Shown here: in pieces, positions 17,217 through 41,841 of the stretch
Position numbering within the stretch: the first letter of the stretch is position 1
How the letters are laid out: each line of letters begins with the position of its first letter
Assembly: GCA_016177845.1 (NCBI GenBank)
Contig: JACOUO010000030.1
Span: 37,649-101,648, forward strand
Source of the DNA: Deltaproteobacteria bacterium
GTDB lineage: Bacteria > Desulfobacterota > GWC2-55-46
Length of the DNA stretch: 64,000 bases
Reading direction: 5' to 3'
Notes under the pieces: generated by a model
Databases searched by the model: none
What the model saw: the letters and a program-made list of their open reading frames with translations, nothing else
What the model was told of the DNA's origin: nothing
Position numbers and translations under genes: made by a program

Positions 17217-17283
17217 ATATACCCTCAAAAAAACCTTGACGACAATCTAACCCATTGAAAACACAGCTTTTTGCCCTCTAACA

Positions 17284-24612: not shown

Positions 24613-25101
24613 TTAAGGGTTGGCCGAGAGCATATTCTCTATCTGGCTGACATGGGACTTCTCTTCTTCAAGAAGCTCGCTGTATATTTTTCTTCCTTCT
24701 TCGGTCTGCGACCTCTTTGAGAGCTTCTCAAAATACTCAACAGAATGCCTTTCCGTATCGAGAGCTATAATGAGGGCCTTTTTAGGGGTATCTATGGCAC
24801 GCACAAGAGCATCTACATTTATCCTTTTTGAAAAAATATCTGCCGCGCCGGTCCGCTCGATAAAATCTTCTATCTGCAGTTCTTCTTCCGTGATCTGGTC
24901 TGAAAACCCTGCCTCAGGGAAGAAATGCGTCTCTATCAATTTAAGGTGCTGTTTTTCGTCATCCGCAAGCTTCTTAAATATTGCGCGCGCGTCCTTGTTC
25001 TCCGTCTTTCCTGCAAGAAGCGTATAAAACCTGTAACCGTTTATCTCTATCAGAGCCGCTCTCTTGACTGCCTCTTTTTCTTCCAGATGATCAAAAACCA
25101 T
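24613..25101 (-). CDS. Ferritin-like / rubrerythrin diiron-domain protein
   Basis: Two E...ExxH halves (EINGYRFY...DEKQH; ERHSVEYF...EEKSH); no rubredoxin domain. Confidence 0.8.
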   Translation of the reverse strand: MVFDHLEEKEAVKRAALIEINGYRFYTLLAGKTENKDARAIFKKLADDEKQHLKLIETHFFPEAGFSDQITEEELQIEDFIERTGAADIFSKRINVDALVRAIDTPKKALIIALDTERHSVEYFEKLSKRSQTEEGRKIYSELLEEEKSHVSQIENMLSANP

Positions 25102-25297
25102 AACCGAATCTCCTTTTAAAAGTTTGCGCGCCCGAATTCCTATTTAAATTTATCAGAAATAAGGGATTTGGGCAAGTCAGGCCAAAAGTAAGTATTGAAT
25201 CACAGGCGGAATAATGTTAGAAGATATGGTCTGCTAATATTTAGATTTCTGAAACGCGCGCAAACTAATACGGTATTACCTAAAGAGGAGGTTGTGA

Positions 25298-26068
25298 ATG
25301 GGACTGCTTGAGGGGAAAAAGGGTATAATTTTCGGCGTCGCGAATGACAAAAGCATAGCGTGGGCAATTGCCCAGCTCCTCCATAAAGAGGGCATGGAAT
25401 TGGCCTTCACATACGCCGGAGAGGCCCTTGAGTCCAGGGTCAGGCCTCTTGCGGATTCACTTGGCGCAAAACTCATATTGCCCTGTGATGTAACCAATGA
25501 CAGCCAAATAGACGAAGTATTTGAAATCATTAAGAAAGAATGGAACGGGCTCGATGTCCTCGTCCATTCCATAGCATTTGCAAAGAAAGAAGAGCTTAAG
25601 GGCGAATACACCCAGACCTCAAGAGAGGGCTTCAAGCTCGCAATGGAAGTAAGCGCATATTCCCTTGTAGCGCTGGCAAGAAGAGCTGAGCCCTTGATGC
25701 TTGACAGGAACGGCAGCATCGTTACCTTAAGCTACTACGGAAGCGAAAAGGTAATACCCAATTATAATGTAATGGGGGTAGCAAAGGCAGCTCTTGAGGC
25801 AAGCGTCAGGTATCTGGCCGCTGACCTTGGCCCGAAAAACATAAGAGTCAATGCTATTTCAGCAGGCCCTTTAAAAACGCTTGCTGCAATGGGCATCTCC
25901 GGGTTCAAGCAAATCCTCGATATAGTCGAAGCGAAGGCCCCTCTCAGGCGTAATGTCACGCAGGAAGATGTAGCAAAAACAGCGCTTTACCTCTTAAGCG
26001 ACCTTGCCAGTGGCGTTACCGGAGAAGTGCTTTATGTGGATTCAGGATACAATGTGATAGGGATTTAG
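25298..26068 (+). CDS. fabI: Enoyl-ACP reductase
   Basis: [31 protein letters not shown]. Confidence 0.95.
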
Positions 26069-26320
26069 CCCGGTAAGCGTAATTTTGGGCTTTCCTTTTA
26101 TGTTTTTTTGTGATAGACTCTACTAAAATCTACATCCCTGATTAAACAAAGAAATTTTAAGAAAACACTGAGAATTTGCCCCCATACAGTTTTTTTTAAG
26201 CTTCGGGCAAATTAATCCATAAATCTGCCCTGCGTTGACAGGCAGGTTTTTTATGTATAGGACTGCGTAAAATAAAGGAAGATATGATTACCTGAATAAA
26301 AGCTGTACACATATAAAGTT

Positions 26321-27595
26321 ATGCATATAATAGCCGACCTGCACATCCACAGCAGTTACTCGAGGGCGACAAGCAAAGACATGAATCTGGACACGCTTTC
26401 GCTCTGGGCAAAAGTAAAAGGGATAGATCTCCTCGGCACCGGAGATTTTACCCACCCTGCACATTTTGCCTCCATCGAAGAGAAGCTCGAACCCACTGGG
26501 GACGGGCTGTTCGTCCTGAAAAATTCAAACAATCCCAAAAAATCAAATAATCCTCCCATAAATTTCATGCTGACGGCTGAAGTCAGCAACATATATTCCG
26601 AAGGCGGGAAGACCCGTAAGATACACAACCTTATCTTTGCCCCTTCCCTGGAAGCCGCAAAGAAGATAAACGCCTCTTTTGCCAAACTGGGCAATATCAC
26701 CTCTGACGGCAGGCCCATTTTCGGTTTTTCGGCAAAAGACCTCATTAAGATAGTCCTTGATGCCTCGCCTGACTGCATGCTCATCCCGGCACACGCGTGG
26801 ACCCCGTGGTTTTCAATCTTCGGCAGCAAATCAGGCTACAACTCAATAGAAGAATGCTTCGGCGAGTATTCAAAATACATCTACGCCATTGAAACCGGGC
26901 TTTCCTCCAATCCGCAGATGAACTGGAGGCTCTCATCGCTCGATAATGTCACCCTTATCTCCAATTCAGACGCCCATTCGCCCTCCAAGCTCGGCAGGGA
27001 GGCAAATGTCCTCGACTGCAAAATGGACTACTTTGAGATAATAGATATTTTAAAAACAAAGAATAACGAAAAATTCCTTTATACAATAGAATTTTACCCT
27101 GAAGAGGGCAAATACCACTCAGACGGCCACAGGGGCTGCGGCATCCTCTTCTCTCCTGAAGAGACCATAAAGGCAGGAAAGAGATGTCCTGTCTGCAACA
27201 GAGATGTAACCGTAGGAGTCTTAAGCCGGGTAGAAGAGCTTGCGGACAGGCCTGAGGGCTTTATGCCTGAAAATGCCATCCCCTCGAAGCACCTTGTTCC
27301 GCTTGAGGAAATCCTCGCCGAGACATTTGAAGTAGGTGTAGCCTCAGTAAAAGTGCAAAGGGAATACAAAAGGCTTACAGAAGAAGCAGGGAGCGAGTTC
27401 AATCTGCTCCTCCATATGGATGAGGATGAAATATCGACGATAGCCGGCCCAAAGGTGGCAGAGGCTATCTTAAAAGTAAGGAATGGAGATTTAAGCATCA
27501 GCCCCGGCTTTGACGGGGAGTTCGGAAAAATAAAGATCTTCGGCAGGACTGAAGAGATCGTGCCTCTTGGCCCTCAGCAGATAGGGCTCTTTTGA
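26321..27595 (+). CDS. Endonuclease Q family / PHP-domain protein
   Basis: DLHIHSSYSRATSK, GTGDFTHP, PAHAWTPW, SNSDAHS, GKYHSDGHR, CPVC, PGFDGEFG. Confidence 0.85.
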   Translation: MHIIADLHIHSSYSRATSKDMNLDTLSLWAKVKGIDLLGTGDFTHPAHFASIEEKLEPTGDGLFVLKNSNNPKKSNNPPINFMLTAEVSNIYSEGGKTRKIHNLIFAPSLEAAKKINASFAKLGNITSDGRPIFGFSAKDLIKIVLDASPDCMLIPAHAWTPWFSIFGSKSGYNSIEECFGEYSKYIYAIETGLSSNPQMNWRLSSLDNVTLISNSDAHSPSKLGREANVLDCKMDYFEIIDILKTKNNEKFLYTIEFYPEEGKYHSDGHRGCGILFSPEETIKAGKRCPVCNRDVTVGVLSRVEELADRPEGFMPENAIPSKHLVPLEEILAETFEVGVASVKVQREYKRLTEEAGSEFNLLLHMDEDEISTIAGPKVAEAILKVRNGDLSISPGFDGEFGKIKIFGRTEEIVPLGPQQIGLF

Positions 27596-27691
27596 TTTTT
27601 TTAGCGGGGAGAAAAGCTTTCCCGTGTCAGCATCGGCAACAATTTTATTCACGATACTATTCTTACTACTTGTATTACACAGGAGGGCTTT

Positions 27692-28378
27692 ATGCAGAGG
27701 CTATATAAGGGAATTCAGAAATTCCAGCAACTGCACCACAAAAAAGATGAAGAGTTCTACTCAGAATTGTCGAAAGGACAATCTCCTGATGTACTCTTTT
27801 TCGCGTGTTCGGACTCAAGGGTCGATCCGAACCTTATAACCCAGAGCAAACCCGGCGAACTCTTCATAGTAAAAAATGTCGGCAATATCATCCCCGCAAA
27901 CGGCCCGCGCTGGAACAAGAGCTGTACGGCAGCGGCTATAGAGTTTTCATTGCTCGTATTGAAGGTGCCCGATATCGTAATCTGCGGTCACTCGGACTGC
28001 GGCGCGATGAAGGCGCTTTACTATGATGAAAAAGACTTCTCAGAGATGCCAAATCTCAAGGATTGGGTCAACACGGCCAAGAATGTAAAGGAAGCCGTTG
28101 AGCATGAAAAGAACCCTGACCCGTCTTACAAGGCGCGCAAGGAACTTACCGAGAAGATGCATGTAATGCTTCAGATAGAGAACCTTATGAGCTATCCTCT
28201 TGTAAAGGAAGCTGTCGAGGAAGAAAAGCTTACGCTTCACGGCTGGTATTATGATATCGGCACAGGCCTTGTGCACGCCTATGACAGGCACAACAACACA
28301 TTCGAGCCCATACAGTGCGACGATGACGACCTCATAGGGCCGGTGCTTAAGAGAGATTCCTGCAGCGACGCGCAGTAA
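27692..28378 (+). CDS. Beta-class carbonic anhydrase
   Basis: CSDSRV and HSDCG zinc ligands; LHGWYYDI. Confidence 0.93.
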   Translation: MQRLYKGIQKFQQLHHKKDEEFYSELSKGQSPDVLFFACSDSRVDPNLITQSKPGELFIVKNVGNIIPANGPRWNKSCTAAAIEFSLLVLKVPDIVICGHSDCGAMKALYYDEKDFSEMPNLKDWVNTAKNVKEAVEHEKNPDPSYKARKELTEKMHVMLQIENLMSYPLVKEAVEEEKLTLHGWYYDIGTGLVHAYDRHNNTFEPIQCDDDDLIGPVLKRDSCSDAQ

Positions 28379-28619: not shown

Positions 28620-28868
28620 ATGAGGTATCTCAAGTATCTCCTTTTACTTTTCATACTTATATGCGTCCTTATCATCTCTGCCGTGTCATGGCATTCGATA
28701 GAGGAGATACACTACCTTAAATCCTTTTATCCTGAGCGCCTCTCGGTTGAAGACGCTTTCCATGCCGCATGGGTCGAGGTCTTAAAAATACATATAATCA
28801 GCCTGCCTCTGCTTACCATCATCCTCATCTGCGCATTCCTGCTATGGCTCTATAAAAAAAGGGAATAG
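28620..28868 (+). CDS. Hypothetical small membrane protein (2 TM)
   Basis: Two hydrophobic segments; 56 bp upstream of the USP gene. Confidence 0.6.
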   Translation: MRYLKYLLLLFILICVLIISAVSWHSIEEIHYLKSFYPERLSVEDAFHAAWVEVLKIHIISLPLLTIILICAFLLWLYKKRE

Positions 28869-28924: not shown

Positions 28925-30109
28925 ATGTATAGAAAAATACTATTTTGCCTTGATAATTCAGCTTACGCAAACACCGGAATAGACCTTGGGCTTGAGATAG
29001 CCAAAGAGCATAACGCCTCTAATGCCGGCTGCCATGTGTATGCTGCAAAGCTCCACAATGACAGGTTCCGCGAGATGGAAGACGGCCTGCCGCCACAGTA
29101 CCAACAAGGAGAAATATTAAAAAACCAGCGCGAAGTCCACGACACCCTCATTACAAGGGGCTTAAAAATAATCTCCGACTCCTACACCTCCGTACTCCAT
29201 GCCAAATCAAAGGTGCTTGGACTTGATTCAATAGGGATAAGCAGGGAGGGCAAGAATTACGAACAACTTGTCCTGGAGATAACCGAAGGCGGATACGACC
29301 TTGCCGTAATCGGCGCTTTCGGGCTCGGCAAGACAGAATCAGGCCGCATAGGAAGCGTCTGCGAAAGAGTAATAAGGCGGATAAACATAGACACCCTCGT
29401 TACGAGGGATACACTCTCAACAAACCCTCAGGGAAGCATTCTGGTTGCCATTGACGGCAGCCCGCAATCATTCGGAGGGCTTTTGACCGCGCTTGAGCTT
29501 TCAAAGGTGTTTAACCGCAAAGTTGAGGCAGTGAGCGCATTTGACCCATGCTTCCATCAGACAGCGTTCCGTTCGATTGCCGGGGTACTCAGTGTTGAGG
29601 CAGGCAGGCTATTTAAATTCAGCGAACAGGAAAAGCTCCATGAAGAGATAATAGATAAAGGGCTTGCCAGAATATACCAGGAGCACCTCGATACCGCAGT
29701 CTCAATAGGCAAAGAAAAAGGCATCGAGGTAAAGGCAACTCTCCTTTCAGGCAAGCCTTTCAATGAGATACTCAAATACATGAAAAAGACCTCTCCTTTC
29801 ATGCTCATTATCGGCAGGACAGGCGTCCATGCCTCCCCTACCCTTGACATAGGCTCTACAACCGAGAACTGCATGAGGGAGTCAGACTGCCATATCCTCA
29901 TCTCTTCAAGGAAATACTCGCCTGATGCGGGAGCAAAAAAGATTGACGCCATCACATGGACGGATGAGGCTAAAACAATCCTTGAGCGCATTCCCCAGTT
30001 CGCAAGGGGTGTAGTCAAGAACATGGTTGAAAACTCTGCAAGGAGCGCGGGCCTCGATGAGGTCACTGCGGAGTTCATGCACACTGTCCGCAAGAAGATG
30101 GAAGAATGA
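28925..30109 (+). CDS. Tandem universal stress protein with C-terminal PCP_red-like domain
   Basis: Two USP units (KILFCLDNS...GSVCERVIR; ILVAIDGS...GSTTENCMR); tail WTDEAKTILERIPQFARGVVKNMVE...VTAE. Confidence 0.8.
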   Translation: MYRKILFCLDNSAYANTGIDLGLEIAKEHNASNAGCHVYAAKLHNDRFREMEDGLPPQYQQGEILKNQREVHDTLITRGLKIISDSYTSVLHAKSKVLGLDSIGISREGKNYEQLVLEITEGGYDLAVIGAFGLGKTESGRIGSVCERVIRRINIDTLVTRDTLSTNPQGSILVAIDGSPQSFGGLLTALELSKVFNRKVEAVSAFDPCFHQTAFRSIAGVLSVEAGRLFKFSEQEKLHEEIIDKGLARIYQEHLDTAVSIGKEKGIEVKATLLSGKPFNEILKYMKKTSPFMLIIGRTGVHASPTLDIGSTTENCMRESDCHILISSRKYSPDAGAKKIDAITWTDEAKTILERIPQFARGVVKNMVENSARSAGLDEVTAEFMHTVRKKMEE

Positions 30110-31308
30110 TTCCGATGGACTGCCCTCCTTTTTTAGTCTCATGGAATATCACCAAAAGGTGCAATCTCAAATGCAGCCACTGCTATCTTGACGCCTCTGA
30201 GCTTGAAGGCAACAATGAAGCCACAACGGTTGAAGCGCACAGGTTTGTCGATGAGATAGCTTCCGTAAACCCTCAGGCAATGCTGGTGCTGACAGGCGGA
30301 GAGCCTCTGATGCGCCCCGATATTTTTGAGGTCTCTTGCTACGCCTCTCAAAAAGGGCTTACAGTCGTACTTGGCACCAACGGAACGCTGCTTGAAGACA
30401 AGCTGATTGAAAAACTCAAGGATAGCGGAGTTAAGGGTGTAGGAGTAAGCCTTGACTCCTTAAACCCAAGCTACCACGATACATTCAGGGGACAAGACGG
30501 AGCATGGCAAAAGACAGTTAAAGCAATAGATTCGCTGAGATTACATGAAGTGCCTTTCCAGCTTCAGCTTACTGCCACACGGCAGAACATGCAAGAGATA
30601 CCCTCCTTCATTGAATTCGCCTATGAAAAAAATGCCAAGGCCGTTAACATTTTCTTTCTTGTATGCACAGGCAGGGGGCAGGATATAACGGATATAACCC
30701 CATCCGAATACGAAGAGATACTGAAATACCTTACAGAGGCTGAAGATGCCTATAAAGGCAAGATCATGGTCAGGGCAAGGTGCGCACCTCATTTTTTAAG
30801 GGTCGCCTCAGAGAATCCCCTTCACGGCTCTACAAGCGGCTGCATAGCAGGAAGAGGGTATTTAAGGATATCCCCTGAGGGGTTTGTCACCCCATGCCCC
30901 TACATACCCGTAAACAGCGCCACCTATAATCTAAAGGAAAAACCCCTTAAAGATATTATCGAGACCGACCGGCAGTTCACCTCTCTCAGAAAACCTCAAT
31001 ACTCCGGCAGGTGCAAGGGTTGTGAATTTGCGGAGAGCTGCGGCGGGTGCAGGGCAAGGGCGCTTGCCTCTACAGGCGACCTTATGGGAGAAGACCCGTG
31101 GTGCGCTTACGAGCCGAAAGGATCCGACGCAAAAAAGATTGAGGTAAACCCGCTCTGGACTATTGAAGCTCAAGAGAGGCTTAAAAACATCCCTTCTTTT
31201 TTAAGAGGCATGGTAAAAAAAGGGGTCGAGAGATACGCAAAACATAAAGGCATTGAAAGGATTACCCCTGAGTTAATGGCAGAGCTTAGAAAGAGGAGCG
31301 GCAGGTGA
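30106..31308 (+). CDS. Radical SAM/SPASM protein (Ahb/NirJ-like) with C-terminal PCP_red-like domain
   Basis: WNITKRCNLKCSHCY, TGGEP, SPASM cysteines (CIAG...PCP...CKGC...CGGCRAR...DPWC); tail WTIEAQERLKNIPSFLRGMVK. Confidence 0.85.
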   Translation: MIPMDCPPFLVSWNITKRCNLKCSHCYLDASELEGNNEATTVEAHRFVDEIASVNPQAMLVLTGGEPLMRPDIFEVSCYASQKGLTVVLGTNGTLLEDKLIEKLKDSGVKGVGVSLDSLNPSYHDTFRGQDGAWQKTVKAIDSLRLHEVPFQLQLTATRQNMQEIPSFIEFAYEKNAKAVNIFFLVCTGRGQDITDITPSEYEEILKYLTEAEDAYKGKIMVRARCAPHFLRVASENPLHGSTSGCIAGRGYLRISPEGFVTPCPYIPVNSATYNLKEKPLKDIIETDRQFTSLRKPQYSGRCKGCEFAESCGGCRARALASTGDLMGEDPWCAYEPKGSDAKKIEVNPLWTIEAQERLKNIPSFLRGMVKKGVERYAKHKGIERITPELMAELRKRSGR

Positions 31309-31502
31309 GCAAAAAAGAAAGCGAATTTAAACCCAAAAAGGGGATCAAAAGACAGTTCTTCGGCTGCGTGCTCCTTTCGCTTGGTTTTCTCAATACTTTA
31401 TTATCGGTAAGGGCGGGTGTTGAGCCGGGCTGGTTTAATTATCTGATGATAATCTTCGGTTCGATATTTTTAGGCACAGGCATATGGCAGGCGCGCTCTT
31501 AA
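31305..31502 (+). CDS. Hypothetical small membrane protein (2 TM)
   Basis: GTG start overlapping the rSAM stop (GTGA); basic N-terminus plus two hydrophobic segments. Confidence 0.6.
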   Translation: MSKKESEFKPKKGIKRQFFGCVLLSLGFLNTLLSVRAGVEPGWFNYLMIIFGSIFLGTGIWQARS

Positions 31503-33034
31503 TCCTTCTTTCTCCTTGCGCTGTAAAGCCACAAAAGCTCGCCTGCGAACACAAATAGCCCTATCAATACAGGCCATACATAAAATGAATTATCCGCCTC
31601 AGTCTCTAAGATCAGCCAATGCCAGCTCGTCATCACATGCCTTGAGCCCTTATCCCCGTTAGAGCCGTCCCATGCTGCAAAGGCTACAGGGATGAACTTG
31701 CCCGGTTCAAACTGGATATCTCTTTTGCTGTCGCCTGTCTTAAGCGGTCTTGTGAGAATAACTCTCCAGGTACCCTTTTCATAAGCGCCCGTTGCCTTAA
31801 GGCCAATCTCTTCGGACATACGAATTTCACTGTTGCTTGCTCCCTTTGAGTTCATCAGCTTTAGGCTCTGCGGTGAATCGATTGCGCCCTCACTTTGCCA
31901 GAACCAGATGTTTACAGGCTTGGAATCTCCCATGCCGAAGTATGGCTTTTCACTTTCTTTCGAAACAACAGGAAACTGAACCGCAACTCCGTCCACAAAC
32001 AACTCGCCGTCTGCTATCTCTATCGCCTTTTCATCCCAGGGCATGCTCTTTGTCGGGTCATCCCATTCAAGGAGGAAGACTATCTCGCTCTCGTTATAAA
32101 GGACCTTTACGGAAATCGAATTCAAGGAAGGCTTGAAGTGCCTCTCATTCGCTATAATCTGGGGCACCATGTAAAAGCTTGTGTATTCGGCCTTTGCCCA
32201 GGCCTCGCTCTTAGCATCCTTTGGCAGCTGCCCCGTTACCCTCACAGCCTTTATGGCATCGCTGTCGCCGGGCTTTTTATACGGCTCATCAAGAGAGGCA
32301 ACATAGTTGGCAACATCCCACCTCTCCTTGTCAGTCATTATCTTTTTGCTCTGCGGGTCCGCAAAGCTCGGCATCTGCGTGCCGGGTATGCCTACGGTAA
32401 TGCGGGCGTAAATATCCTCAGGCTCATTCGTAACCCTGAACGACCATCCTTTTGTAAGATTCCTTGGCCATGTCCTGCCCCCCCAGTCATCCTTAAGCTT
32501 CTTTGTTCCGTCTCCCCTGCCCTCTTCCCCGTGGCATTCCGAGCACCTGTCCCTGAAAAGCTTGCCTCCGCTCTCGATACTCTCTTTTGAAGACCTTACT
32601 TTTGAGGACAGGTCTATTTTCCCCTTCTCAGGTTTTTCTAATCCCCCCAGGCTCTTTATGTAAGCCGTGGCATTCTTTATTTCAGAGCCGCTTAACATAT
32701 CAGCCCAGCCGGGCATTGATGTGCCGTTCATGCCTGTCCAGCCCGGTATTCCGTTATGGGCGTTCGCGCCTGCTATCATCCTATTGAAATCTTCATCAGA
32801 TGGCGCAATCTCATCGAACGGGGTCGACTTCCACTTATATACGCCAAGGGTGAAGTCCCTCGGGGCAGGGTTCAGGAATTCAGAGGCAGGCCCGTCCCCT
32901 GCGCCGTCCTTTCCGTGGCACCATGAACATCTTTTTCCGTAAACTTCTTTCCCTTTTTCAATATCGCCTTCAGCCAATGAAAGCATCGGAAAAAGAGTAA
33001 ATATTGTTATAAGGAGTAAAATCCTTTTAAGCAT
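31499..33034 (-). CDS. Diheme cytochrome c fused to an EbdC-like (DOMON-type) heme-b domain, C-terminal TM anchor
   Basis: Signal peptide; CSWCH and CSECH; EWDD...DGVAVQFP...FGMGD...NIWFW...AFAAWDG; hydrophobic C-terminus. Confidence 0.8.
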   Translation of the reverse strand: MLKRILLLITIFTLFPMLSLAEGDIEKGKEVYGKRCSWCHGKDGAGDGPASEFLNPAPRDFTLGVYKWKSTPFDEIAPSDEDFNRMIAGANAHNGIPGWTGMNGTSMPGWADMLSGSEIKNATAYIKSLGGLEKPEKGKIDLSSKVRSSKESIESGGKLFRDRCSECHGEEGRGDGTKKLKDDWGGRTWPRNLTKGWSFRVTNEPEDIYARITVGIPGTQMPSFADPQSKKIMTDKERWDVANYVASLDEPYKKPGDSDAIKAVRVTGQLPKDAKSEAWAKAEYTSFYMVPQIIANERHFKPSLNSISVKVLYNESEIVFLLEWDDPTKSMPWDEKAIEIADGELFVDGVAVQFPVVSKESEKPYFGMGDSKPVNIWFWQSEGAIDSPQSLKLMNSKGASNSEIRMSEEIGLKATGAYEKGTWRVILTRPLKTGDSKRDIQFEPGKFIPVAFAAWDGSNGDKGSRHVMTSWHWLILETEADNSFYVWPVLIGLFVFAGELLWLYSARRKKD

Positions 33035-33799
33035 CTATTTCTTTCCCCATGACCTTGGTACATTGCCGGTATAGTCGTAGATAAAGAGTATCGCCTTCCA
33101 GACCTCATCCTCAGTTAGCATATTCTCCCACGCAGGCATGGATGATATGGCTGGAGAGCCTTCTTTAGGCAGGCCGGGCCCGCCTTTTACAACTCTCCAG
33201 AAGACATACGATTCCTGAAGCTGTGCAATTGTATCCTTGCCCTGAAATGGCAGGGGCAGAGGGTTAAGGCCCTGCGCATAGTGGCCTTTGCCGTCAAGCT
33301 TGTCTCCGTGGCAATAAAAACAATTCCTGAAATAAATCACGCCGCCCTCACCTACAAACTGCCTGAACTGTGCCGGGTCTTCCTTCTCAAGCCTTCTGTA
33401 AGGGTTTTCAAGGGTAGCAAGGTCAAATGTCTTATCATATGCCTTGATGGTTGCGGGCGGTGCAGGATGCGTTGCCCTAAGCTCTACAGGCGGCTCAAGG
33501 GAGGGCTTAACTGCGTTATAAGTAAAATAAATTGCAATCAAAGGAAGGACCGCAAATACGACATTCCTTATTAGTCTTTTTGAAGGGTCTTCCACAAGCG
33601 CCCTGATGGGAGAGAAGAGCTCCTTTGTGCCTTTCTCAGTAGATGTCATCACAAGCAGTATTGTGATGACTACAAAGAACATATACATGAATATGAGGCT
33701 CTCAGGGATGGGCTTACCCAATAAAAACCCGGGAGCCTTGAAGAACAGATAGGCAAGGAGCGAAAGGACGATAAATTGTATTATCTTCGGCATCTTCAT
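33035..33799 (-). CDS. Membrane-anchored monoheme cytochrome c
   Basis: N-terminal TM segments; CFYCH; distal SSMPAW. Confidence 0.85.
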   Translation of the reverse strand: MKMPKIIQFIVLSLLAYLFFKAPGFLLGKPIPESLIFMYMFFVVITILLVMTSTEKGTKELFSPIRALVEDPSKRLIRNVVFAVLPLIAIYFTYNAVKPSLEPPVELRATHPAPPATIKAYDKTFDLATLENPYRRLEKEDPAQFRQFVGEGGVIYFRNCFYCHGDKLDGKGHYAQGLNPLPLPFQGKDTIAQLQESYVFWRVVKGGPGLPKEGSPAISSMPAWENMLTEDEVWKAILFIYDYTGNVPRSWGKK

Positions 33800-34338
33800 T
33801 GCTTGCCTTCCATAGCGTTTTGTTCCTGAGCTTGAGGAGGCGTTACGACAGTCACCTCAGCCCCGCCGAGTCTCTGCAGATATGCGATTACAGCCTTTAT
33901 TTCTGTCTCATTTAATCCTATCGAGCCTGTGCGCACATCAGGCATGGGGCTTTCTTTATCGTTCGTACCTGTCACGCCAAACCCCGCTGCAACATAGGCT
34001 GAAGGGCTTACCATCGACTCACGGATATATTCCTCAGCGGTCTTTGCGCTCCCCTTATACCCTGCCCCCTTTATCCTTTCAGAAGCAACAGTTGCTATAT
34101 TATCAAGCAGAGGCGCCCTGCCCCCGACAGGAGTATGGCATAGCGTGCAGGCGCCTTTGCCGTTGTATACGACTTCTCCGAGAGAGACGAACTCATCTAC
34201 CGTCATTGAGCCTTCATCAAAGGCCTCTTCCTTCGGCGGCTCTTCGGGCTTTATAGGCGGCACATACTTTACTGAAAAGAGCGTATAGACCCCGATTACG
34301 AAAAGGCTGAATATCGTCACCTTTACAAAGTTACTCAT
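33796..34338 (-). CDS. Monoheme cytochrome c
   Basis: N-terminal anchor; CTLCH; YIRES...SPMP. Confidence 0.85.
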   Translation of the reverse strand: MSNFVKVTIFSLFVIGVYTLFSVKYVPPIKPEEPPKEEAFDEGSMTVDEFVSLGEVVYNGKGACTLCHTPVGGRAPLLDNIATVASERIKGAGYKGSAKTAEEYIRESMVSPSAYVAAGFGVTGTNDKESPMPDVRTGSIGLNETEIKAVIAYLQRLGGAEVTVVTPPQAQEQNAMEGKQ

Positions 34339-36181
34339 CCGCTGCCCCGTATTTGTTCTCAGTGCTCATCTGGCTCAGCCAGAATATGAAAATGACGATT
34401 GCCATGAAGATGATGGTGCCGACCGATACCACATTTGCGGCATAGCCGATTGTCGGCGTGTACGCGTCAGGAGAAGTGTCCCGCATCACAGAATAGACAT
34501 GCCAGTGCTGCCTTATGGCAGACCGTACAAAGCCCATGAGCCCCATCAGCCATGTGAATGAAACCGCAATGAGGAAAAGGGCGTACTGGCTCCTGTCAGG
34601 CATCCTGCCCCATCTGTGCGGGCTCGCCTCTTTCGCGCCACTGAACATGAAAAAATCTATTACGCTGCACAAAATTATTACTGCCAGGGTTGACATGACC
34701 TGCGGAACCGATGAAGCCACCTTGTAAACGGTATTCGTGAAGTATCCGTAATAAACCCCAAGATAGATGATGTTTACGATAGCCGCAGTAAAAATCGCGC
34801 CCTGCGCCGCGTTGCCGTATTTTGCCCATGAGACTGCGGCAATTTTATTCGCCCTTCTGTATAAAAGAAAACTTAGAAAGGTAAACAGGAGCATTATATT
34901 TACAGCCGTATTCTTGGCAGGCATTATGCCAAGCGGGCCAAGATACGGATGGTATTGGCCTCCGAGAGCCTTTGCCTCATAGGGCTTAAGTATCAGACTA
35001 TGCGGAGTGAACCATATCAAAAAGCAGACCATTATCACAAAGGCGATGTACTTGATGTATTTAGTGTAACGCTGCCCGCCCTCGCTCCTTTCAAGCCCGC
35101 ACCAGAGGTAATAATTCGCCGCAAGGAAGAGCGCGCCTATCAAGACCGCCTGAATGATGAAGAGCCACGCGAACACCCCTCCCATAAGAGTAATGCCCAT
35201 CTGCTGGCTGTAGGCATAAATCTCTGCGGTAAGCCAGTAGCCCGCAAAAGGCAAAGGAAGGAGCGCGCCTATGGCGATAAGGTTTGCCGTATAGCCCATC
35301 CAGTCGTAATGCGCCCTTTGTTCCATCGTGCGCGCGCTTAAGAACTTGTAAGCGGCATATGCCCCGACAATTGAACCGCCGTAAGCGATATTTGCGATAA
35401 ACCTGTGGAGGTTCATGGGATTCCAGAGGTGGTTGTGCACTGCATGCCAGATATTGCCGTCAAAAGACCCCGCGATATCCACTCCCGCGGGCGACATCAT
35501 GAATGTCACCCATGCGTTTGCAATGAACATGAGGGTAGTGCCTGCGCCGTTTAACAATAACCCAACCCCAAGGTGCGCCCATTTTTTATAGCCCTTATCC
35601 ATTGAATGCCAGCCGTAGTAATAGATGTAGAGGGCGGCTGACTCAACAAAAAAGAACAGGGCATACAAAAGCATGGTCGGCCCGAAGATGGAGGAGAGAT
35701 ACTTCATCAGGTCAGGATAGAATACGATTAAACTAAGCAGGAGAAGGCCGCCTGTTACCGCGGTAATCGAGTACGCCGTAAGGCTTACCCTTATGAACTC
35801 ATACGCCATCTCATCATAGCGTTTATCTTTTGTAGCCATGCCGATTGCTTCGATAATGAATACAAATATCGGAACCGCAAGCACAAATGCCGCAAACCAC
35901 AGGTGCATCTGAGCGGCCAGCCATACTGCCACCCTGCCGTTCACACCCTTTATCTTCGGGTAGTCCTGTGCCTTGAGCTTGGGCGCGGGCGGGTTCGCCT
36001 GTTTTACCGAATCCCCGGTAACGGAACTGCCCTGAACTGGTTCAGTTATTGCCGTCTCAGCGGCAAAGGATATGTTACGGGAGCCATCGAAAGAAATAGA
36101 GACGCAAAGGAATGAGAACGCGAAAAGCAGTATGAGGAATACTTTTCTTCCAAAAAGATTTAAAGCGGAGGTGCTCACCAA
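34331..36181 (-). CDS. Cytochrome bd subunit I (CydA)-like membrane oxidoreductase
   Basis: QMHLW (His19-like), ANAW...SPAG, LHRF (His186-like), IMP (Met393-like), RQHW in place of GRQPW; no CydB beside it. Confidence 0.8.
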   Translation of the reverse strand: MVSTSALNLFGRKVFLILLFAFSFLCVSISFDGSRNISFAAETAITEPVQGSSVTGDSVKQANPPAPKLKAQDYPKIKGVNGRVAVWLAAQMHLWFAAFVLAVPIFVFIIEAIGMATKDKRYDEMAYEFIRVSLTAYSITAVTGGLLLLSLIVFYPDLMKYLSSIFGPTMLLYALFFFVESAALYIYYYGWHSMDKGYKKWAHLGVGLLLNGAGTTLMFIANAWVTFMMSPAGVDIAGSFDGNIWHAVHNHLWNPMNLHRFIANIAYGGSIVGAYAAYKFLSARTMEQRAHYDWMGYTANLIAIGALLPLPFAGYWLTAEIYAYSQQMGITLMGGVFAWLFIIQAVLIGALFLAANYYLWCGLERSEGGQRYTKYIKYIAFVIMVCFLIWFTPHSLILKPYEAKALGGQYHPYLGPLGIMPAKNTAVNIMLLFTFLSFLLYRRANKIAAVSWAKYGNAAQGAIFTAAIVNIIYLGVYYGYFTNTVYKVASSVPQVMSTLAVIILCSVIDFFMFSGAKEASPHRWGRMPDRSQYALFLIAVSFTWLMGLMGFVRSAIRQHWHVYSVMRDTSPDAYTPTIGYAANVVSVGTIIFMAIVIFIFWLSQMSTENKYGAADE

Positions 36182-36666: not shown

Positions 36667-37167
36667 ATGGCGAATAAAGACAAAAAAAAGGCCCTTGTAC
36701 TTGGAATAGGCAATATCCTATTAAAGGACGAAGGGCTTGGGGTCAGGGCGATAGAGTTTTTTGAGAGGATGTACAGTTTCAGCCGGGAAGTCTCCTGCAT
36801 GGACGGGGGCACTGCCGGGTTAGCGCTTCTTTCATATATAAAAGATTTCTCCCACATCATTATTATCGACGCTGTCGCCGCAAACGGGCACCCCGGCTCT
36901 ATCCTTAAGTTCAAAGGAGACGAAGTCCTCAAAGGCCCGCCCCTCAGGACATCCGCTCACCAGCTCGGAGTTACAGACCTGCTCACTCTTTTGAAATTCG
37001 AGGGTTACAGCCCTGAAGTTGCCATTATAGGGGTAATCCCTGAAGATTATTCAGCCGGACTTGAACTTTCTCCTTCTATCTCAAAGGTTCTCCCTGAAAT
37101 TGCCGAAGCTATATCAGATGAGCTTGCCGCCTTTGGATTCAAGACAAAGAGGAAAAACCATGCATGA
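36667..37167 (+). CDS. Hydrogenase maturation endopeptidase (HyaD/HybD family)
   Basis: LGIGNILLKDEGLG, DGGT, IIDA, SAHQ. Confidence 0.92.
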   Translation: MANKDKKKALVLGIGNILLKDEGLGVRAIEFFERMYSFSREVSCMDGGTAGLALLSYIKDFSHIIIIDAVAANGHPGSILKFKGDEVLKGPPLRTSAHQLGVTDLLTLLKFEGYSPEVAIIGVIPEDYSAGLELSPSISKVLPEIAEAISDELAAFGFKTKRKNHA

Positions 37168-37501
37168 GATGTCCATAACAAAAAGCATGCTTGAGATAAT
37201 CAAAGACGAGATGGATAAAAGCAAAGTCTCTCAGCTCAGAAGCGTTCGGATTAAAGTCGGGGAACTTACGGCTGTAGAGCCTGATGCGCTTAGGTTCTGC
37301 TTTGAGGCATCCACAAAAAACACCCCACTGGAGGGAGCTTCCCTTGAGATTGAGGAAGTGCCTTTGAAAGGGAAATGCCGCAGGTGCGGAAATAAATTCA
37401 GGATAGAGGCATTCGTAAGCCGATGCCCTGAATGCGGCGGCGCTGATATAGAAAAAATATCAGGCACTGAACTTGATATAGTCTCGATAGAGGCTGAGTG
37501 A
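37160..37501 (+). CDS. hypA: Hydrogenase nickel incorporation protein
   Basis: MHE start at ATG 37160; CRRC and CPEC. Confidence 0.93.
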   Translation: MHEMSITKSMLEIIKDEMDKSKVSQLRSVRIKVGELTAVEPDALRFCFEASTKNTPLEGASLEIEEVPLKGKCRRCGNKFRIEAFVSRCPECGGADIEKISGTELDIVSIEAE

Positions 37502-37520
37502 TTACGGAGGATTTTGCAAA

Positions 37521-38189
37521 ATGCACGATATATCGGTTGAACAGAAGATATTATCCAAAAACGACGAGCTTGCGGGCGAGAACAGAGAGCTTCTTACAAG
37601 TAAAAAGATATTTTCCATTAACATGGTAAGCTCGCCCGGTTCTGGAAAGACTTCAATCATCGAAAAGACGCTCCCCTATCTCAAAGAGCGCATTAAGATA
37701 GCGGTAATCGAAGGGGACCTTCAGACCGACCTTGACGCGCAAAGGGTCGCAAAGTACGGTATCCCAGTAAAGCAGATAACAACGGGCAAGGCCTGCCACC
37801 TTGACGCGCACAACATCCACCATGTACTGCCCTGGGTAATGGAGCAGGACGGGATAGGTCTCCTCATAATCGAAAATGTCGGCAACATGGTCTGCCCGGC
37901 TGAATACGACCTTGGGGAAGACATGATGATAACCGTAATGAGCACGACCGAGGGAGATGACAAGCCGCTTAAATACCCGGCAATTTTCAGCTCAGCGGAT
38001 GTGCTGCTTTTAAATAAGACAGACCTCGCGCCTTATACTGACTTCAATATCGAAAGGGCAAAAGAGAATGCCCTCAGGATAAACCCGTACCTTAAAATTT
38101 TTGAGACCTCATGCAGGACAGGCGCTGGCATAAAAGAGTGGAGCGATTTTCTCGCTCAAACAGCCCTGAACGGGCATGGAAAGATTTGA
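37521..38189 (+). CDS. hypB: Hydrogenase nickel GTPase
   Basis: SSPGSGKT, CHLDA, ENVGNMVCPA, NKTDL. Confidence 0.95.
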   Translation: MHDISVEQKILSKNDELAGENRELLTSKKIFSINMVSSPGSGKTSIIEKTLPYLKERIKIAVIEGDLQTDLDAQRVAKYGIPVKQITTGKACHLDAHNIHHVLPWVMEQDGIGLLIIENVGNMVCPAEYDLGEDMMITVMSTTEGDDKPLKYPAIFSSADVLLLNKTDLAPYTDFNIERAKENALRINPYLKIFETSCRTGAGIKEWSDFLAQTALNGHGKI

Positions 38190-40514
38190 ATGGACAAAGC
38201 CTCAAGGATACATATTACCGGAATAGTGCAGGGAGTCGGCTTCCGTCCCTTTGTCTATAATCTCGCTGGAAAATACAACCTCAAGGGGTTCTGCCTCAAT
38301 GACTCCGAAGGGGTTACAATCGAGGTACAGGGCAATTCCGTTGACAGGTTCATTGATGAACTCAAGGCAGCTCCTCCGCCCCTTTCAAGGATAGAGACAT
38401 TTTCTGTGGAGGATGTAGCCGCTTCCCCCTACACTGATTTCTCAATCAGGGAAAGCCAAAAGAAAGACGGAAAGTTCGTCCTCATATCCCCTGACATAGC
38501 CATATGCCCGGACTGCCTGAGGGAGTTACTGGACCCCGCTGACAGGAGATACCTCTACCCGTTCATAAACTGCACCAATTGCGGCCCGCGGTATTCAATA
38601 GTAAAAGACATACCCTATGACAGGCCGTTTACCACAATGGCCCCTTTCAAATTATGTGCAGACTGCGAGAGCGAATACCATAACCCGGCTGACCGCCGCT
38701 TCCATGCCCAGCCAAACGCATGCGCGCATTGCGGCCCAATGCTCTGGCTTGCGGAAGACCATCTCGCAAAACCTTATGAGGTAAATTATTCGGCAATAAA
38801 GATGGTGCAGGAACTCCTGAAAAAGGGAGCGATACTGGCCATTAAAGGGCTTGGGGGCTTCCACCTTGCCTGCGACGCTGAAAACGATAAGGCTGTAAAG
38901 AAGCTGAGGGAGAGAAAAAGAAAATCCCTTCTCAAAGGCGTAAGCTCAAATAAGCCATTTGCGCTCATGAGCCCTGACATTGAAAAGATAAAGTCCTATG
39001 CCCATGTGTCAAGGCTTGAGCAGGAAACGCTTGAAGGCAGAATAAGGCCTATCGTACTTCTCGAAAAAAAGGATTCGAGGAATCTGTCTGAATCCATCGC
39101 GCCCAATAATACGCGCTACGGAGTGATGCTTCCATATACGCCTATGCATTACCTGCTCTTCAATTCAGAGGCGCATAACTTCAGGGCGCTTGTAATGACA
39201 AGCGGAAATCTATCAGAAGAGCCTATTACCATTTCCAATAATGAAGCTGAGGAGAGGCTTTCAGGCATTGCAGATTATTTTCTCCAGCACAACAGGGACA
39301 TATACATGAGGGTCGATGACTCAATCGTCCGCGCGGACGGAAAGCTCAGGATACTGAGGCGCGCTCGCGGCTTCACACCAAGCCCTATTCACATCGGCGA
39401 AGAGGTGAAAGACATACTGGCCTGCGGTGCTGAACTTAAGAACACATTCTGCATCACGAAAGGAAAGAACGCCATCTTAAGCCAGCACATAGGAGACCTT
39501 GAAAATTTCGAGGCTCTGGAATTTTATAAAGAGACGCTTAAAAACCTTAAGAACTCATTCAGGAGCGAACCCGGGATTATTGCCCATGACATGCATCCTG
39601 ATTACCTGAGCACCAAGTTTGCCTCTGAATATATCGAAGAGAATAATATCAAGCATGAGGATGTCTTTCCCGTACAGCACCACCACGCCCATATTGCAAG
39701 CTGCATGGCTGAGAACGGCTTAAGGCAAAAATGCATCGGGATATCCTTTGACGGCACAGGCTACGGCACTGACGGGAATATCTGGGGAGGAGAATTCCTT
39801 ATAGCGGACAGGTTGGATTTTAAACGGGAGGCCCACTTCAGCTACATCGCTCTGCCCGGAGGGGACAAGGCCGTAAAAGAGCCGTGGAGGGTCGCGCTTT
39901 CATATCTCATGCATACCTATAATGATGAAAACAGCGATGAAGTGAAGCTCTTCCTGAAAAGGTTTGAAAGTAAAGAATCCGATATAATACTTAAGATGAT
40001 AAAAGGCCGCATCAATTCTCCTTTGACATCGAGCGCGGGGAGGCTCTTTGACGCCATCGCCTCCATTATAGGACTAAGGGACAGGATAACATTCGAGGCA
40101 GAGGCTGCCATAGAACTTGAGGCAATTGCCGACAACTCCGTTAAAGAAAGCTATCCTTATGCTGTTGAAAACAGAGAGCCTTCTGAAATTGATCTTAGGC
40201 CTCTTATAATGGCAATAATCAATGACCTGAAAGACGGCATCTCTCTTCCGACAATCTCAGGCAGGTTCCACAATACGATTGCCGATATCATTAAAAATAT
40301 TGCCCGGAAGGTCAGGAGCAGGGATAAAACAAACGATGTGGTCTTAAGCGGAGGCGTGTTTCAGAACAACCTCTTATTGCAAAAAACACAGGAACTCCTT
40401 GAGGCAGAGGGCTTCAAGGTATGGACTCATGGGCAGGTGCCGTCAAATGACGGAGGCATTGCGCTCGGTCAGGCAATTGTCGCATGGGAGAGATTCAAAC
40501 ATAAAGGAGTATAA
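38190..40514 (+). CDS. hypF: Carbamoyltransferase
   Basis: GIVQGVGFRPF acylphosphatase domain; four CxxC zinc motifs; KGLGGFHL; QHHHAH; PSNDGGIALGQ. Confidence 0.96.
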   Translation: MDKASRIHITGIVQGVGFRPFVYNLAGKYNLKGFCLNDSEGVTIEVQGNSVDRFIDELKAAPPPLSRIETFSVEDVAASPYTDFSIRESQKKDGKFVLISPDIAICPDCLRELLDPADRRYLYPFINCTNCGPRYSIVKDIPYDRPFTTMAPFKLCADCESEYHNPADRRFHAQPNACAHCGPMLWLAEDHLAKPYEVNYSAIKMVQELLKKGAILAIKGLGGFHLACDAENDKAVKKLRERKRKSLLKGVSSNKPFALMSPDIEKIKSYAHVSRLEQETLEGRIRPIVLLEKKDSRNLSESIAPNNTRYGVMLPYTPMHYLLFNSEAHNFRALVMTSGNLSEEPITISNNEAEERLSGIADYFLQHNRDIYMRVDDSIVRADGKLRILRRARGFTPSPIHIGEEVKDILACGAELKNTFCITKGKNAILSQHIGDLENFEALEFYKETLKNLKNSFRSEPGIIAHDMHPDYLSTKFASEYIEENNIKHEDVFPVQHHHAHIASCMAENGLRQKCIGISFDGTGYGTDGNIWGGEFLIADRLDFKREAHFSYIALPGGDKAVKEPWRVALSYLMHTYNDENSDEVKLFLKRFESKESDIILKMIKGRINSPLTSSAGRLFDAIASIIGLRDRITFEAEAAIELEAIADNSVKESYPYAVENREPSEIDLRPLIMAIINDLKDGISLPTISGRFHNTIADIIKNIARKVRSRDKTNDVVLSGGVFQNNLLLQKTQELLEAEGFKVWTHGQVPSNDGGIALGQAIVAWERFKHKGV

Positions 40515-40517
40515 AAT

Positions 40518-40733
40518 ATGTGCCTTGGAATTCCGGGCAAGATAATAGAAATAAACGGCTCAACGGCAAAGGTCGATATAGCCGGCACGAGGAAAGAGGC
40601 TTCCATAAAGCTTATGGAAGATGTCAAGGTCGGTGAATTCGTCATCATCCACGCAGGCTTTGCCATAGAAAAGGTCGACGAGCAAAAGGCCAGAGAGACT
40701 CTCGAACTTATAGACGAGGTTATAGAACGATAA
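40518..40733 (+). CDS. hypC: Hydrogenase chaperone
   Basis: MCLGIPG N-terminus; HAGFAI. Confidence 0.96.
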   Translation: MCLGIPGKIIEINGSTAKVDIAGTRKEASIKLMEDVKVGEFVIIHAGFAIEKVDEQKARETLELIDEVIER

Positions 40734-41824
40734 TGAAATACATAGATGAATTCCGCCGAAAAAAAGAAGCGCAGGGGATATTGAAAACAATCCATAAGAT
40801 ATCCCGAAAACGGGTAAACATCATGGAGATATGCGGCACACACACGCATTCGATCTCCAGGTACGGGATACGGGAAGGCCTTCCTGAGAGCATCAAGCTC
40901 ATCTCCGGGCCGGGCTGCCCTGTGTGCGTCACATCCGCAGCGGACATAAACAGGATAATAGAGTTCAGCAAGTCCAGAAAGGACGCTATCATAGCTACCT
41001 TCGGGGACATGATGAGGGTCCCTGGCACTAACTCTTCGCTTCAGGAAGAAAGGGCAAGGGGCGGTGATATAAGGGTAGTCTATTCGCCTCTCGGCACGCT
41101 TGATATCGCAAGGGCAAACCCTGATAAAGAAGTTGTCTTCTATGCCGTAGGGTTTGAGACGACTGTGCCTACAGTTGCCTCCACCATCCTTACAGCCAAA
41201 GAAGAGGGGCTTAAGAACTTATCAGTCCTGTCCCTGCACAAGCTCACGCCTCCAGCAATGAGGGCTCTGCTTGACAGCGGCGAGGTCGAGATAAACGGGT
41301 TTATCTGTCCGGGCCATGTTACGGCCATAATTGGTGCAGGCGCATACGAGTTCCTTGCAACGGATTACAAATCACCCTGTGTCGTAGCGGGCTTTGAGCC
41401 GATTGACGCGCTCATGGGCTTATATATGCTTGTAAAACAGCTTGAAGAGGACAGGTGCGAGATAGAGATAGAATATAATAGAGTAGTCACCTGGGACGGC
41501 AACAAAAAGGCCCAGACTGTAATAGATGAAGTATTCGAGCCTTCCGACAGCCTCTGGAGAGGCATTGGCAATATCCCGAAGAGCGGACTTCAGATAAATG
41601 AAAAATACGCCTTCTTTGATGCCGAGAAGAGGTTTTCAATACCAAAGGGCGAGGATGCAGAGCCCAAGGGCTGCAGGTGCGGCTTAGTGCTTAAAGGCAT
41701 TATGACGCCTGACCAGTGCCCGCTCTTTGCCACGGCGTGCACGCCTGAATCACCGGTTGGCCCTTGCATGGTATCCTCAGAAGGCACATGCGCGGCCTTC
41801 TTCAAATACAGAAGAGTTGCTTGA
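40733..41824 (+). CDS. hypD: Hydrogenase maturation protein
   Basis: CGTHTH, GPGCPVC, GFETT, PGHV, C-terminal Cys cluster. Confidence 0.96.
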   Translation: MKYIDEFRRKKEAQGILKTIHKISRKRVNIMEICGTHTHSISRYGIREGLPESIKLISGPGCPVCVTSAADINRIIEFSKSRKDAIIATFGDMMRVPGTNSSLQEERARGGDIRVVYSPLGTLDIARANPDKEVVFYAVGFETTVPTVASTILTAKEEGLKNLSVLSLHKLTPPAMRALLDSGEVEINGFICPGHVTAIIGAGAYEFLATDYKSPCVVAGFEPIDALMGLYMLVKQLEEDRCEIEIEYNRVVTWDGNKKAQTVIDEVFEPSDSLWRGIGNIPKSGLQINEKYAFFDAEKRFSIPKGEDAEPKGCRCGLVLKGIMTPDQCPLFATACTPESPVGPCMVSSEGTCAAFFKYRRVA

Positions 41825-41841
41825 AATCAAATAGGAGTAAT

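Follow-up and report, generated by a model that had tools for sequence, protein, structure and literature searches.

A 64,000-nt stretch of deltaproteobacterial DNA (contig JACOUO010000030.1; "the window", to which all coordinates refer unless a relative's locus is named) harbors two overlapping genes, one for a tandem universal stress protein (USP) and one for a radical S-adenosylmethionine (SAM) enzyme with a SPASM domain (rSAM). The pair appears to encode two proteins for a hitherto undescribed step in the synthesis or modification of haem, because both proteins end in a common tail domain, their genes are linked in hundreds of species and an unusual oxidase is a frequent neighbor. By analogy with AhbD, and with a confidence just short of an even chance, we favor an O2-independent decarboxylation of propionate side chains on an iron tetrapyrrole by a two-protein complex, which would probably be membrane-tethered and have haem b as its likeliest product. 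In the databases the two proteins are merely named 'universal stress protein' and 'radical SAM protein', and a literature search for the USP/rSAM gene pair found no published description of it. The two genes, each an open reading frame (ORF) for which the AlphaFold confidence is given as predicted local distance difference test (pLDDT), are the following.

28925..30109, + strand: USP with PCP_red domain; ORF of 394 aa; two Pfam Usp domains (97 bits) and PCP_red; AlphaFold pLDDT 88.5
30106..31308, + strand: rSAM/SPASM enzyme with PCP_red domain, AhbD/NirJ2 branch; ORF of 400 aa; Pfam Radical_SAM, SPASM and PCP_red; AlphaFold pLDDT 86.5

A preliminary description, made from the DNA letters, had noted the two ORFs, their ATGA overlap, their similar tails, histidine motifs in the USP, the layout of the rSAM and a bd-like gene nearby, and it proved right in every one of these particulars. 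The end of the USP gene reads ...gaagaATGAttccg, and because the letters of the junction read gaagaATGAttc, the ATGA at 30106-30109 serves both as stop of the USP and as start of the rSAM. Promoter and terminator scans between 28300 and 31700 gave counts not above those in shuffled sequence.

To describe the spread of the pair, one genome per species was scanned, which yielded at least 502 relatives of the USP. Eighty loci were fetched and are labelled L019, L074, L086 and so on, with coordinates on the relatives' own stretches; 76 of them were evaluable. According to the ORF tables an rSAM gene lies downstream of the USP in 74 of the 76, typically overlapping it or nearly abutting, and the lineages that carry the pair are Thermodesulfobacteriota-type (delta-type) metagenome-assembled genomes (MAGs), Betaproteobacteria, Nitrospira and Manganitrophaceae. 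USP and rSAM form a conserved module, and with linkage in 74 of 76 loci the independent occurrence of the two genes, named beforehand as a finding that would speak against a joint function, was not borne out. In one of the two loci without an adjacent rSAM (L074, 7025-13167) the gene for USP and PCP_red is located between feoB with a DtxR/FeoA-type iron regulator and a TPR protein with a cytochrome b.

The feature common to both proteins is the PCP_red domain (PF08369) at their C-termini.

29957..30085, + strand: PCP_red domain of the USP, residues 345-387; 52.1 bits; matches PDB 2L09 and ChlB C-termini
31156..31290, + strand: PCP_red domain of the rSAM, residues 351-395; 61.0 bits; matches PDB 2L09 (E 4e-7) and residues 476-520 of the 525 residues of BchB

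Both scores exceed the gathering cut-off of 32.5 bits, and in BLASTP the USP tail and the rSAM tail are 43% identical over 63 residues (E = 8e-15), so the proposal that the tails are homologous PCP_red domains resembling the C-terminus of BchB/ChlB holds. In both AlphaFold models the tail consists of a short strand and three helices behind a low-confidence linker. The linker of the USP covers about residues 330-344, where the pLDDT dips to 67 and falls below 50 at 337-339, and is followed by helices 347-354, 358-374 and 382-391; that of the rSAM covers about residues 331-350 (pLDDT 75 and 67) and is followed by helices 353-360, 364-381 and 388-397. NMR structures of PCP_red have been solved (2L09, 2KRU), and a literature search for its function, either in dark-operative protochlorophyllide oxidoreductase (DPOR) or elsewhere, found none published.

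When tails were compared across genomes, USP tails shared 51% and rSAM tails 63% identity, while USP tails were 40% identical to rSAM tails within a genome and 37% between genomes. These values point to two tail types that are old and distinct. A recent exchange of tails between the two genes was considered and rejected, as there is no same-genome excess. PCP_red is present in all listed homologues of the USP and in all listed homologues of the rSAM, and its copy number ranges from one to five, with up to four repeats in some rSAM members. Proteins of 323-328 aa that consist of PCP_red only are encoded beside the module in a Manganitrophus locus (L053, 14252-15238; four repeats) and in a related metagenome contig (L087, 13900-14871). 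A PCP_red profile search of a set of 5.8 billion proteins returned only stand-alone cyanobacterial proteins of ~61 aa and no other architectures.

The USP itself contains two PF00582 stretches (97 bits), the domain content of a tandem USP. Its sequence similarity to solved or characterized USPs is marginal (E about 1e-3); with the AlphaFold model as Foldseek query, the best folds in the PDB were the tandem USPs TTHA0350 (3AB8, with ATP) and Rv2623 (E 1e-15 to 1e-17, TM-score 0.8 on the target). Conservation was analyzed in 69 unique sequences from the four lineages named above, among which about 85 positions are at least 97% conserved. They include a nucleotide-binding motif in each half.

29312..29359, + strand: nucleotide-binding motif of USP domain 1, G130-x2-G133-x9-G143-S144, sequence GAFGLGKTESGRIGS; G130, G133, G143 and S144 at least 97% conserved
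29813..29860, + strand: nucleotide-binding motif of USP domain 2, G297-x2-G300-x9-G310-S311, sequence GRTGVHASPTLDIGS; G297, G300, G310 and S311 at least 97% conserved

ATP-binding USPs, MJ0577 among them, are marked by the motif G-x2-G-x9-G-S, and the G-x2-G-x9-G-(S/T) pattern of ATP-binding tandem USPs is found, as a motif, in both halves of this protein. In the same 69 sequences the residues H37, H44 (in LHNDRF), H72, H211 (in CFHQTAF) and H239 (in LHEEIID) are invariant, and H254 and H302 are ~98% conserved. The invariant histidines are located in helical inserts that follow strand 2 of each domain. When the two halves were aligned by hand, the inserts appeared to be related, H44 corresponding to H211 and H72 to H239. 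The histidine-containing inserts to which the preliminary description had drawn attention are thus real and strongly constrained. More than 646 homologues of the USP were found, and all 120 listed have the architecture of USP plus PCP_red; the Nitrospira homologue (~700 aa) carries three PCP_red repeats and a rubredoxin-like domain, and that of Manganitrophus (893 aa) five PCP_red repeats and two rubredoxin-like domains.

Genes for USPs are frequent neighbors of operons that low oxygen induces, for instance in Nitrospira marina (PMC8115632), which would suit an ordinary stress or regulatory USP that merely lies next to a haem synthase and whose common tail is an evolutionary leftover without joint function. 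We consider this very improbable in view of the linkage across phyla with overlapping or nearly abutting genes, the near-invariant positions with five histidines outside the USP core, the retention of PCP_red in every listed homologue and the marginal similarity to characterized USPs. Judged by its sequence, the protein is no generic stress protein.

The rSAM carries the motifs for two kinds of iron-sulfur cluster.

30160..30183, + strand: radical SAM cluster motif CX3CX2C, CNLKCSHC, residues 19-26 (C19, C23, C26); the three Cys invariant in 43 family members
31012..31104, + strand: auxiliary Fe-S motif CX2CX5CX2CX17C of the AhbD type (C303, C306, C312, C315, C333); the five Cys invariant in 43 family members

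C226, C246 and C264 are likewise invariant among the 43 homologues. The core domain (PF04055, 85.6 bits) together with CX3CX2C places the protein in the radical SAM superfamily, and its SPASM domain (PF13186, 29.7 bits at a cut-off of 21.5) in the SPASM subfamily, in agreement with the CxxxCxxC plus SPASM layout first read from the letters. The auxiliary motif CX2CX5CX2CX17C has been described for AhbD (PMC10114771) and is carried by 32 of the 35 tail-bearing representatives. The best NCBIfam matches of the rSAM are NirJ2 (TIGR04055, 314 bits, E 1e-93) and AhbD (TIGR04545, 302 bits), both over the full length (model positions 1-339), which confirms the suggested place in the AhbD/NirJ tetrapyrrole branch; both scores lie under the equivalog cut-off of 500 bits. 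The NirJ, AhbC and NirJ1 models gave 180-181 bits, below their cut-offs of 515-650, and models of peptide maturases were far weaker (PqqE, E 1e-37). On the AhbD model, the tail-bearing rSAMs of Nitrospira, Manganitrophus, Rhodocyclaceae and L086 score 260-338 bits.

For a phylogeny, 1.84 billion representatives were searched exhaustively with HMMER, and a neighbor-joining tree of 131 core sequences was then built. All 30 tail-bearing rSAMs were found in one clade, together with 6 others in which no tail was detected; the clade was recovered in 191 of 200 bootstrap replicates when relaxed and in 75 of 200 when required to be exact. Other clades hold NirJ2 above its cut-off (P0283, 533 bits) and AhbD fused to siroheme decarboxylase domains. 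In L086 the tail-bearing rSAM is directly followed by a second rSAM that reaches 497.5 of the 500 bits required on the AhbD model, so that both coexist there. This AhbD fell inside the tail-bearing clade in none of the 200 replicates, and the tail-bearing enzymes were not placed within the AhbD clade. On these sequence comparisons the rSAM is a paralogue of AhbD and NirJ2 and no AhbD orthologue. The objection that it might be a plain AhbD orthologue, raised in advance, was therefore not borne out, given the scores, the separate clade and the near-threshold AhbD that coexists with it in L086. Ten long representatives were also scanned; none was a USP-rSAM fusion, and their extra parts were additional PCP_red repeats, fusions to AhbA/B, a double rSAM or a histidine-kinase ATPase domain.

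Two small ORFs flank the pair.

31305..31502, + strand: hydrophobic membrane protein of 65 aa, likely third component; its GTG start overlaps the rSAM stop (GTGA, ...ggcagGTGAgc)
28620..28868, + strand: ORF of 82 aa with two hydrophobic segments, upstream of the USP; no Pfam family; homologue in the same place in related delta-type loci (44-52% identity)

A hydrophobic ORF of 58-74 aa, offset by -3 to +25 from the rSAM stop and with the common pattern F.G..LL.LG.LN..L, was found in L019 and in those other delta-type loci whose rSAM gene is intact. In Nitrospira, Manganitrophus and L087 a gene for a DUF4149/CopD-like protein with four transmembrane segments follows the rSAM in its place, and in Betaproteobacteria the small membrane ORF is absent after the rSAM. 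The 82-aa ORF may belong to the module; its membership is uncertain because it is conserved only in close relatives.

The translational coupling of the small ORF to the rSAM and its conservation in the delta lineage, the SPASM domain with all its cysteines and the fact that PqqE is the closest solved structure by sequence would fit a protein or peptide maturase like PqqE, anSME or QhpD, in which the rSAM modifies or cross-links, for example, the small membrane protein or an oxidase subunit while PCP_red recognizes the substrate and the USP acts as chaperone. This is improbable in our judgement, because tetrapyrrole enzymes are nearest by a wide margin (E 1e-93 for NirJ2 compared to 1e-37 for PqqE), because HemY and AhbD are among the neighbors (see below), and because the small ORF encodes a hydrophobic membrane protein that is replaced by an unrelated one in Nitrospira and missing in Betaproteobacteria. 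Its interpretation as precursor of a ribosomally synthesized and post-translationally modified peptide was rejected as a main reading on account of its hydrophobic nature and this replacement.

The 65-aa ORF is followed on the opposite strand by a cluster of genes for cytochromes and a bd-like protein.

31499..33034, - strand: membrane-anchored di-haem cytochrome c fused to EB_dh (haem b, similar to the gamma subunit of type II DMSO reductases); Pfam EB_dh and two Cytochrom_C; DMSO_red_II_gam 120 bits; CxxCH at residues 36 and 164
33035..33799, - strand: membrane-anchored mono-haem cytochrome c; Pfam Cytochrome_CBB3; CxxCH at residue 160
33796..34338, - strand: mono-haem cytochrome c; Pfam Cytochrom_C; CxxCH at residue 64
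34331..36181, - strand: cytochrome bd-like protein, putatively of OR-N type, N-terminal half of CydA only; PF01654 79 bits, profile positions 3-232 of 418; at least 11 hydrophobic segments in a crude hydropathy count; without CxxCH

The OR-N family comprises CydA homologues that keep the N-terminal four-helix haem region, lack the quinol-binding half and CydB, and are encoded with alternative electron donors (10.1101/2021.01.16.426971). The bd-like gene of the window has no CydB gene beside it and is in one operon with three adjacent cytochrome c genes, an arrangement also given in that description, and its product is a candidate member of the family. At 31499-31502 the stops of the 65-aa ORF (ending at 31502, + strand) and the EB_dh cytochrome gene (ending at 31499, - strand) overlap by 4 bases, hence the two convergent transcription units have no intergenic spacer, and no terminator-like site was seen between them.

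In delta-type loci the pair and the oxidase cluster are convergent, and in Betaproteobacteria the cluster lies upstream on the same strand, which makes two gene orders; the EB_dh cytochrome gene adjoins the pair in loci of both groups. The bd-like oxidase and cytochromes were found within 10 kb in 9 of 11 evaluable delta loci and 9 of 11 beta loci (18/22), but no bd-like oxidase gene was found within 10 kb in any of the 34 Nitrospira or 3 Manganitrophaceae loci (0/37 for Nitrospirota), where the pair is located among housekeeping genes (MetK, AhcY, UvrA, FtsK). Of the preliminary claim that the pair is tied to a bd-like oxidase, the part concerning the first two lineages stands and its extension to the Nitrospirota does not. 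In all seven beta loci with downstream sequence, a HemY-type proto/coproporphyrinogen oxidase (274-288 bits, cut-off 98) is encoded near the rSAM; within 10 kb of the Nitrospirota loci none was found (0/37). Beside the tail-bearing rSAM gene, L084 and L086 contain a second rSAM-SPASM gene (AhbD-like in L086), a cytochrome b and EB_dh cytochromes; a cytochrome b lies near the pair in L074 as well. From these neighborhood counts, the link of the module to tetrapyrroles is well supported, as had been anticipated, by independent neighbors (HemY in beta loci, the AhbD type in L084/L086, cytochromes and the bd-like oxidase), whereas its specific tie to the oxidase depends on the lineage.

Further genes were seen at individual loci. 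A chlorite-dismutase-family gene, possibly ChdC-like, is located 3 kb upstream of the USP in L086 (197-994); because it occurs there together with the near-threshold AhbD and the module, this locus may encode up to three candidate coproheme-handling proteins. Genes for MauG/MbnH-like di-haem peroxidases are found near HemY in five beta loci (for example L020, 16038-18128; L025, L027, L035), a two-component regulator near the module in four beta loci, and a DsbD/thioredoxin-like protein by the betaproteobacterial cluster in L022. In one Nitrospira subgroup (L029, 7200-9831, and ~30 others) the USP is immediately preceded, on its own strand, by genes for a B12-binding radical SAM protein and a UbiE-type methyltransferase; the best match of the former is slr0320, a 'photosystem II high light acclimation' rSAM (448 bits, below cut-off). 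These two genes, like MetK and AhcY in another subgroup, were considered as parts of the module and rejected, since they are not conserved across lineages.

The neighborhoods bear on the nature of the product. In a sharpened form of the preliminary proposal, the rSAM might carry out a side-chain reaction other than that of AhbD, or a partial decarboxylation, on coproheme or haem, giving a non-canonical haem for the OR-N complex, while the USP as ATP-dependent carrier hands the cofactor over via the small membrane protein. Adjacency of the OR-N cluster in two classes with differing gene orders would fit such a special maturase, as would a CopD/DUF4149-type or two-transmembrane mini membrane protein after the rSAM, an rSAM clade distinct from AhbD and NirJ2, and the coexisting near-threshold AhbD in L086. 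In Betaproteobacteria, moreover, the module is accompanied by the oxidase genes, by a two-component regulator and by a HemY of its own in hosts that should already make haem b (PMC5095920), and OR-N oxidases are uncharacterised, their haems not being known in the literature (10.1101/2021.01.16.426971). All 37 Nitrospirota loci, however, lack the oxidase gene within 10 kb and have housekeeping neighbors, the auxiliary motif is exactly that of AhbD, and a literature search found no unusual haem reported from these organisms, so that we regard this alternative as unlikely, though by no means far-fetched. It is likewise doubtful, if worth entertaining, that the module makes and delivers a non-canonical, coproheme-derived haem required by OR-N oxidases as a group, which are the presumed terminal oxidases in Nitrospira, Nitrospina, Manganitrophus and their relatives; in that case PCP_red would serve generally in docking or in the handling of tetrapyrroles, in DPOR as well.

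For the AhbD-type decarboxylation that we favor, substrate, product, ATP binding, docking and the roles of USP and tails are what we infer from homology, domain content, motif conservation, gene linkage and neighborhoods. AhbD converts coproheme to haem b by radical decarboxylation, using its auxiliary cluster for electron transfer, and AhbC and NirJ remove other side chains (PMC10114771). USP and rSAM, probably with the small membrane protein, would constitute one machine for an O2-independent radical step on an iron tetrapyrrole. By analogy with AhbD, the CX3CX2C cluster of the rSAM would cleave SAM, the resulting 5'-deoxyadenosyl radical would take a hydrogen atom from a propionate group of coproheme or of a closely related compound, loss of CO2 would leave a vinyl group, and the surplus electron would exit via the auxiliary cluster at CX2CX5CX2CX17C. 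The tandem USP would be an obligate partner, probably an ATP-binding one, whose task would probably be to hold the tetrapyrrole or else to pass the electron on. Flexibly tethered and of variable copy number, the PCP_red units would probably gather the partners or their common ligand. Haem b made in this way, without O2 or H2O2, could supply haem-rich respiratory complexes in microaerophiles, and the adjacent consumer in this genome would be the bd-like oxidase of putative OR-N type, together with the four c-haems and the haem b domain (EB_dh) of its cluster. According to reviews, an AhbD-like enzyme may replace ChdC without oxygen in organisms with the coproporphyrin pathway (PMC10114771), and CgoX of this pathway is carried by Nitrospirota (PMC10740692).

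Several points weigh against a decarboxylase of the AhbD type. The rSAM scores far under the equivalog cut-offs of both AhbD and NirJ2. AhbD works alone in vitro, which leaves the need for a partner unexplained. Peptides are common substrates of SPASM enzymes, and the rSAM gene is succeeded by a small ORF. In L086 the near-threshold AhbD is encoded directly downstream of the PCP_red rSAM, and an isofunctional pair in one operon would be odd. Finally, the module occurs together with its own HemY in Rhodocyclaceae and Burkholderiales, although proteobacteria with the classical pathway are mostly without AhbD/HemQ (PMC5095920), and this suggests that something different from ordinary haem b is made there.

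A role in delivery rather than synthesis was weighed as well. HemW, a haem chaperone of the rSAM family that serves respiratory enzymes (PMC10114771), sets a precedent for an rSAM-fold protein that brings finished haem to membrane apoproteins, and the variable number of PCP_red repeats, the stand-alone multi-PCP_red proteins of Manganitrophus and L087 and a membrane protein as third gene could be seen as a carrier platform formed with the USP. However, everything that an active AhbD-type enzyme needs for catalysis is invariant, both cluster motifs included, and HemW belongs to the unrelated HemN branch; we give a chaperone or insertion factor little credence.

Apart from the module, the gene order around it is conserved in delta-type relatives (window 24613-28378 and 36667-42858; 50-65% protein identity): rubrerythrin-like, FabI, PHP/MJ0043_C, (carbonic anhydrase), USP, rSAM, oxidase cluster and the hydrogenase maturation genes hycI-hypA-hypB-hypF. 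In these relatives the gene immediately before the USP is almost always the one for the PHP-domain protein. On the - strand, positions 836-18075 contain a long run of ORFs resembling a complex I (nuo) operon, and six of its ORFs that were scanned are three antiporter-like subunits, a NuoG-like subunit of 838 aa with a molybdopterin domain, a NuoF-like and a NuoD-like subunit. At 49049-50238 a tRNA-Pro(CGG) gene (49049-49125, - strand) adjoins a phage-type integrase gene (49147-50238, - strand), and the GC content shifts from 0.447 to 0.536 within the next 6 kb; this region looks like an integrated mobile element.

The module is present, without annotation, in at least 502 species-level genomes, among them the main nitrite oxidizers and comammox bacteria. 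Its description makes testable which enzyme finishes haem without oxygen in bacteria with the coproporphyrin pathway beyond Gram-positives, and which cofactors the uncharacterised OR-N oxidases contain and how they mature. It would also provide a first functional setting for the PCP_red domain and a case of a USP as fixed enzyme partner instead of a stress factor. Should the product be plain haem b, the pair would still be a new, two-component form of haem synthase.

Compared with known systems, the rSAM resembles AhbD and NirJ2 in its full-length alignment, the CX3CX2C motif, the SPASM domain, an identical auxiliary motif and tetrapyrrole-related neighborhoods. It differs from them in sub-cut-off scores, a separate clade, the extra C-terminal PCP_red domain(s) and an obligate upstream USP partner, and unlike the situation for AhbD, no AhbA, AhbB or AhbC was seen near it in the loci examined. 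NirJ and AhbC belong to the same rSAM/SPASM branch acting on iron tetrapyrroles, and their matches are significant (180 bits) but much weaker than those of AhbD and NirJ2; NirJ is described with CX2CX5CX20-21C, and nearly the same motif is reported for AhbC and AhbD (PMC10114771), whereas the CX2CX5CX2CX17C of this rSAM is the form given for AhbD. HemW is alike only in concept, as an rSAM-family protein tied to the haem supply of membrane respiratory enzymes, and is unlike the rSAM in that it is of the HemN/CgdH branch and lacks both the SPASM and PCP_red domains as well as a USP partner.

The USP has the two-domain tandem fold of TTHA0350, Rv2623 and UspE with G-x2-G-x9-G-S in each half. Unlike them, it carries a C-terminal PCP_red domain (plus rubredoxin-like domains in Nitrospirota) and has a fixed rSAM partner; in addition, the helical insert behind strand 2 is longer in both of its domains and contains invariant His, Arg, Tyr and Phe residues. 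The tails share the Pfam domain of BchB/ChlB and of the cyanobacterial PCP_red proteins (Asr4154, PDB 2L09; 2KRU), and the signature W-T-x-E-A...P-x-F-x-R...G...T is conserved. As in BchB/ChlB, PCP_red forms a small unit of helices that closes the chain of a tetrapyrrole enzyme at its C-terminus; in BchB the helix that contacts the substrate in trans (residues 398-420) lies upstream of PCP_red (476-520). Unlike in BchB/ChlB, PCP_red is carried here by a USP and an rSAM, in one to five copies and in non-phototrophs.

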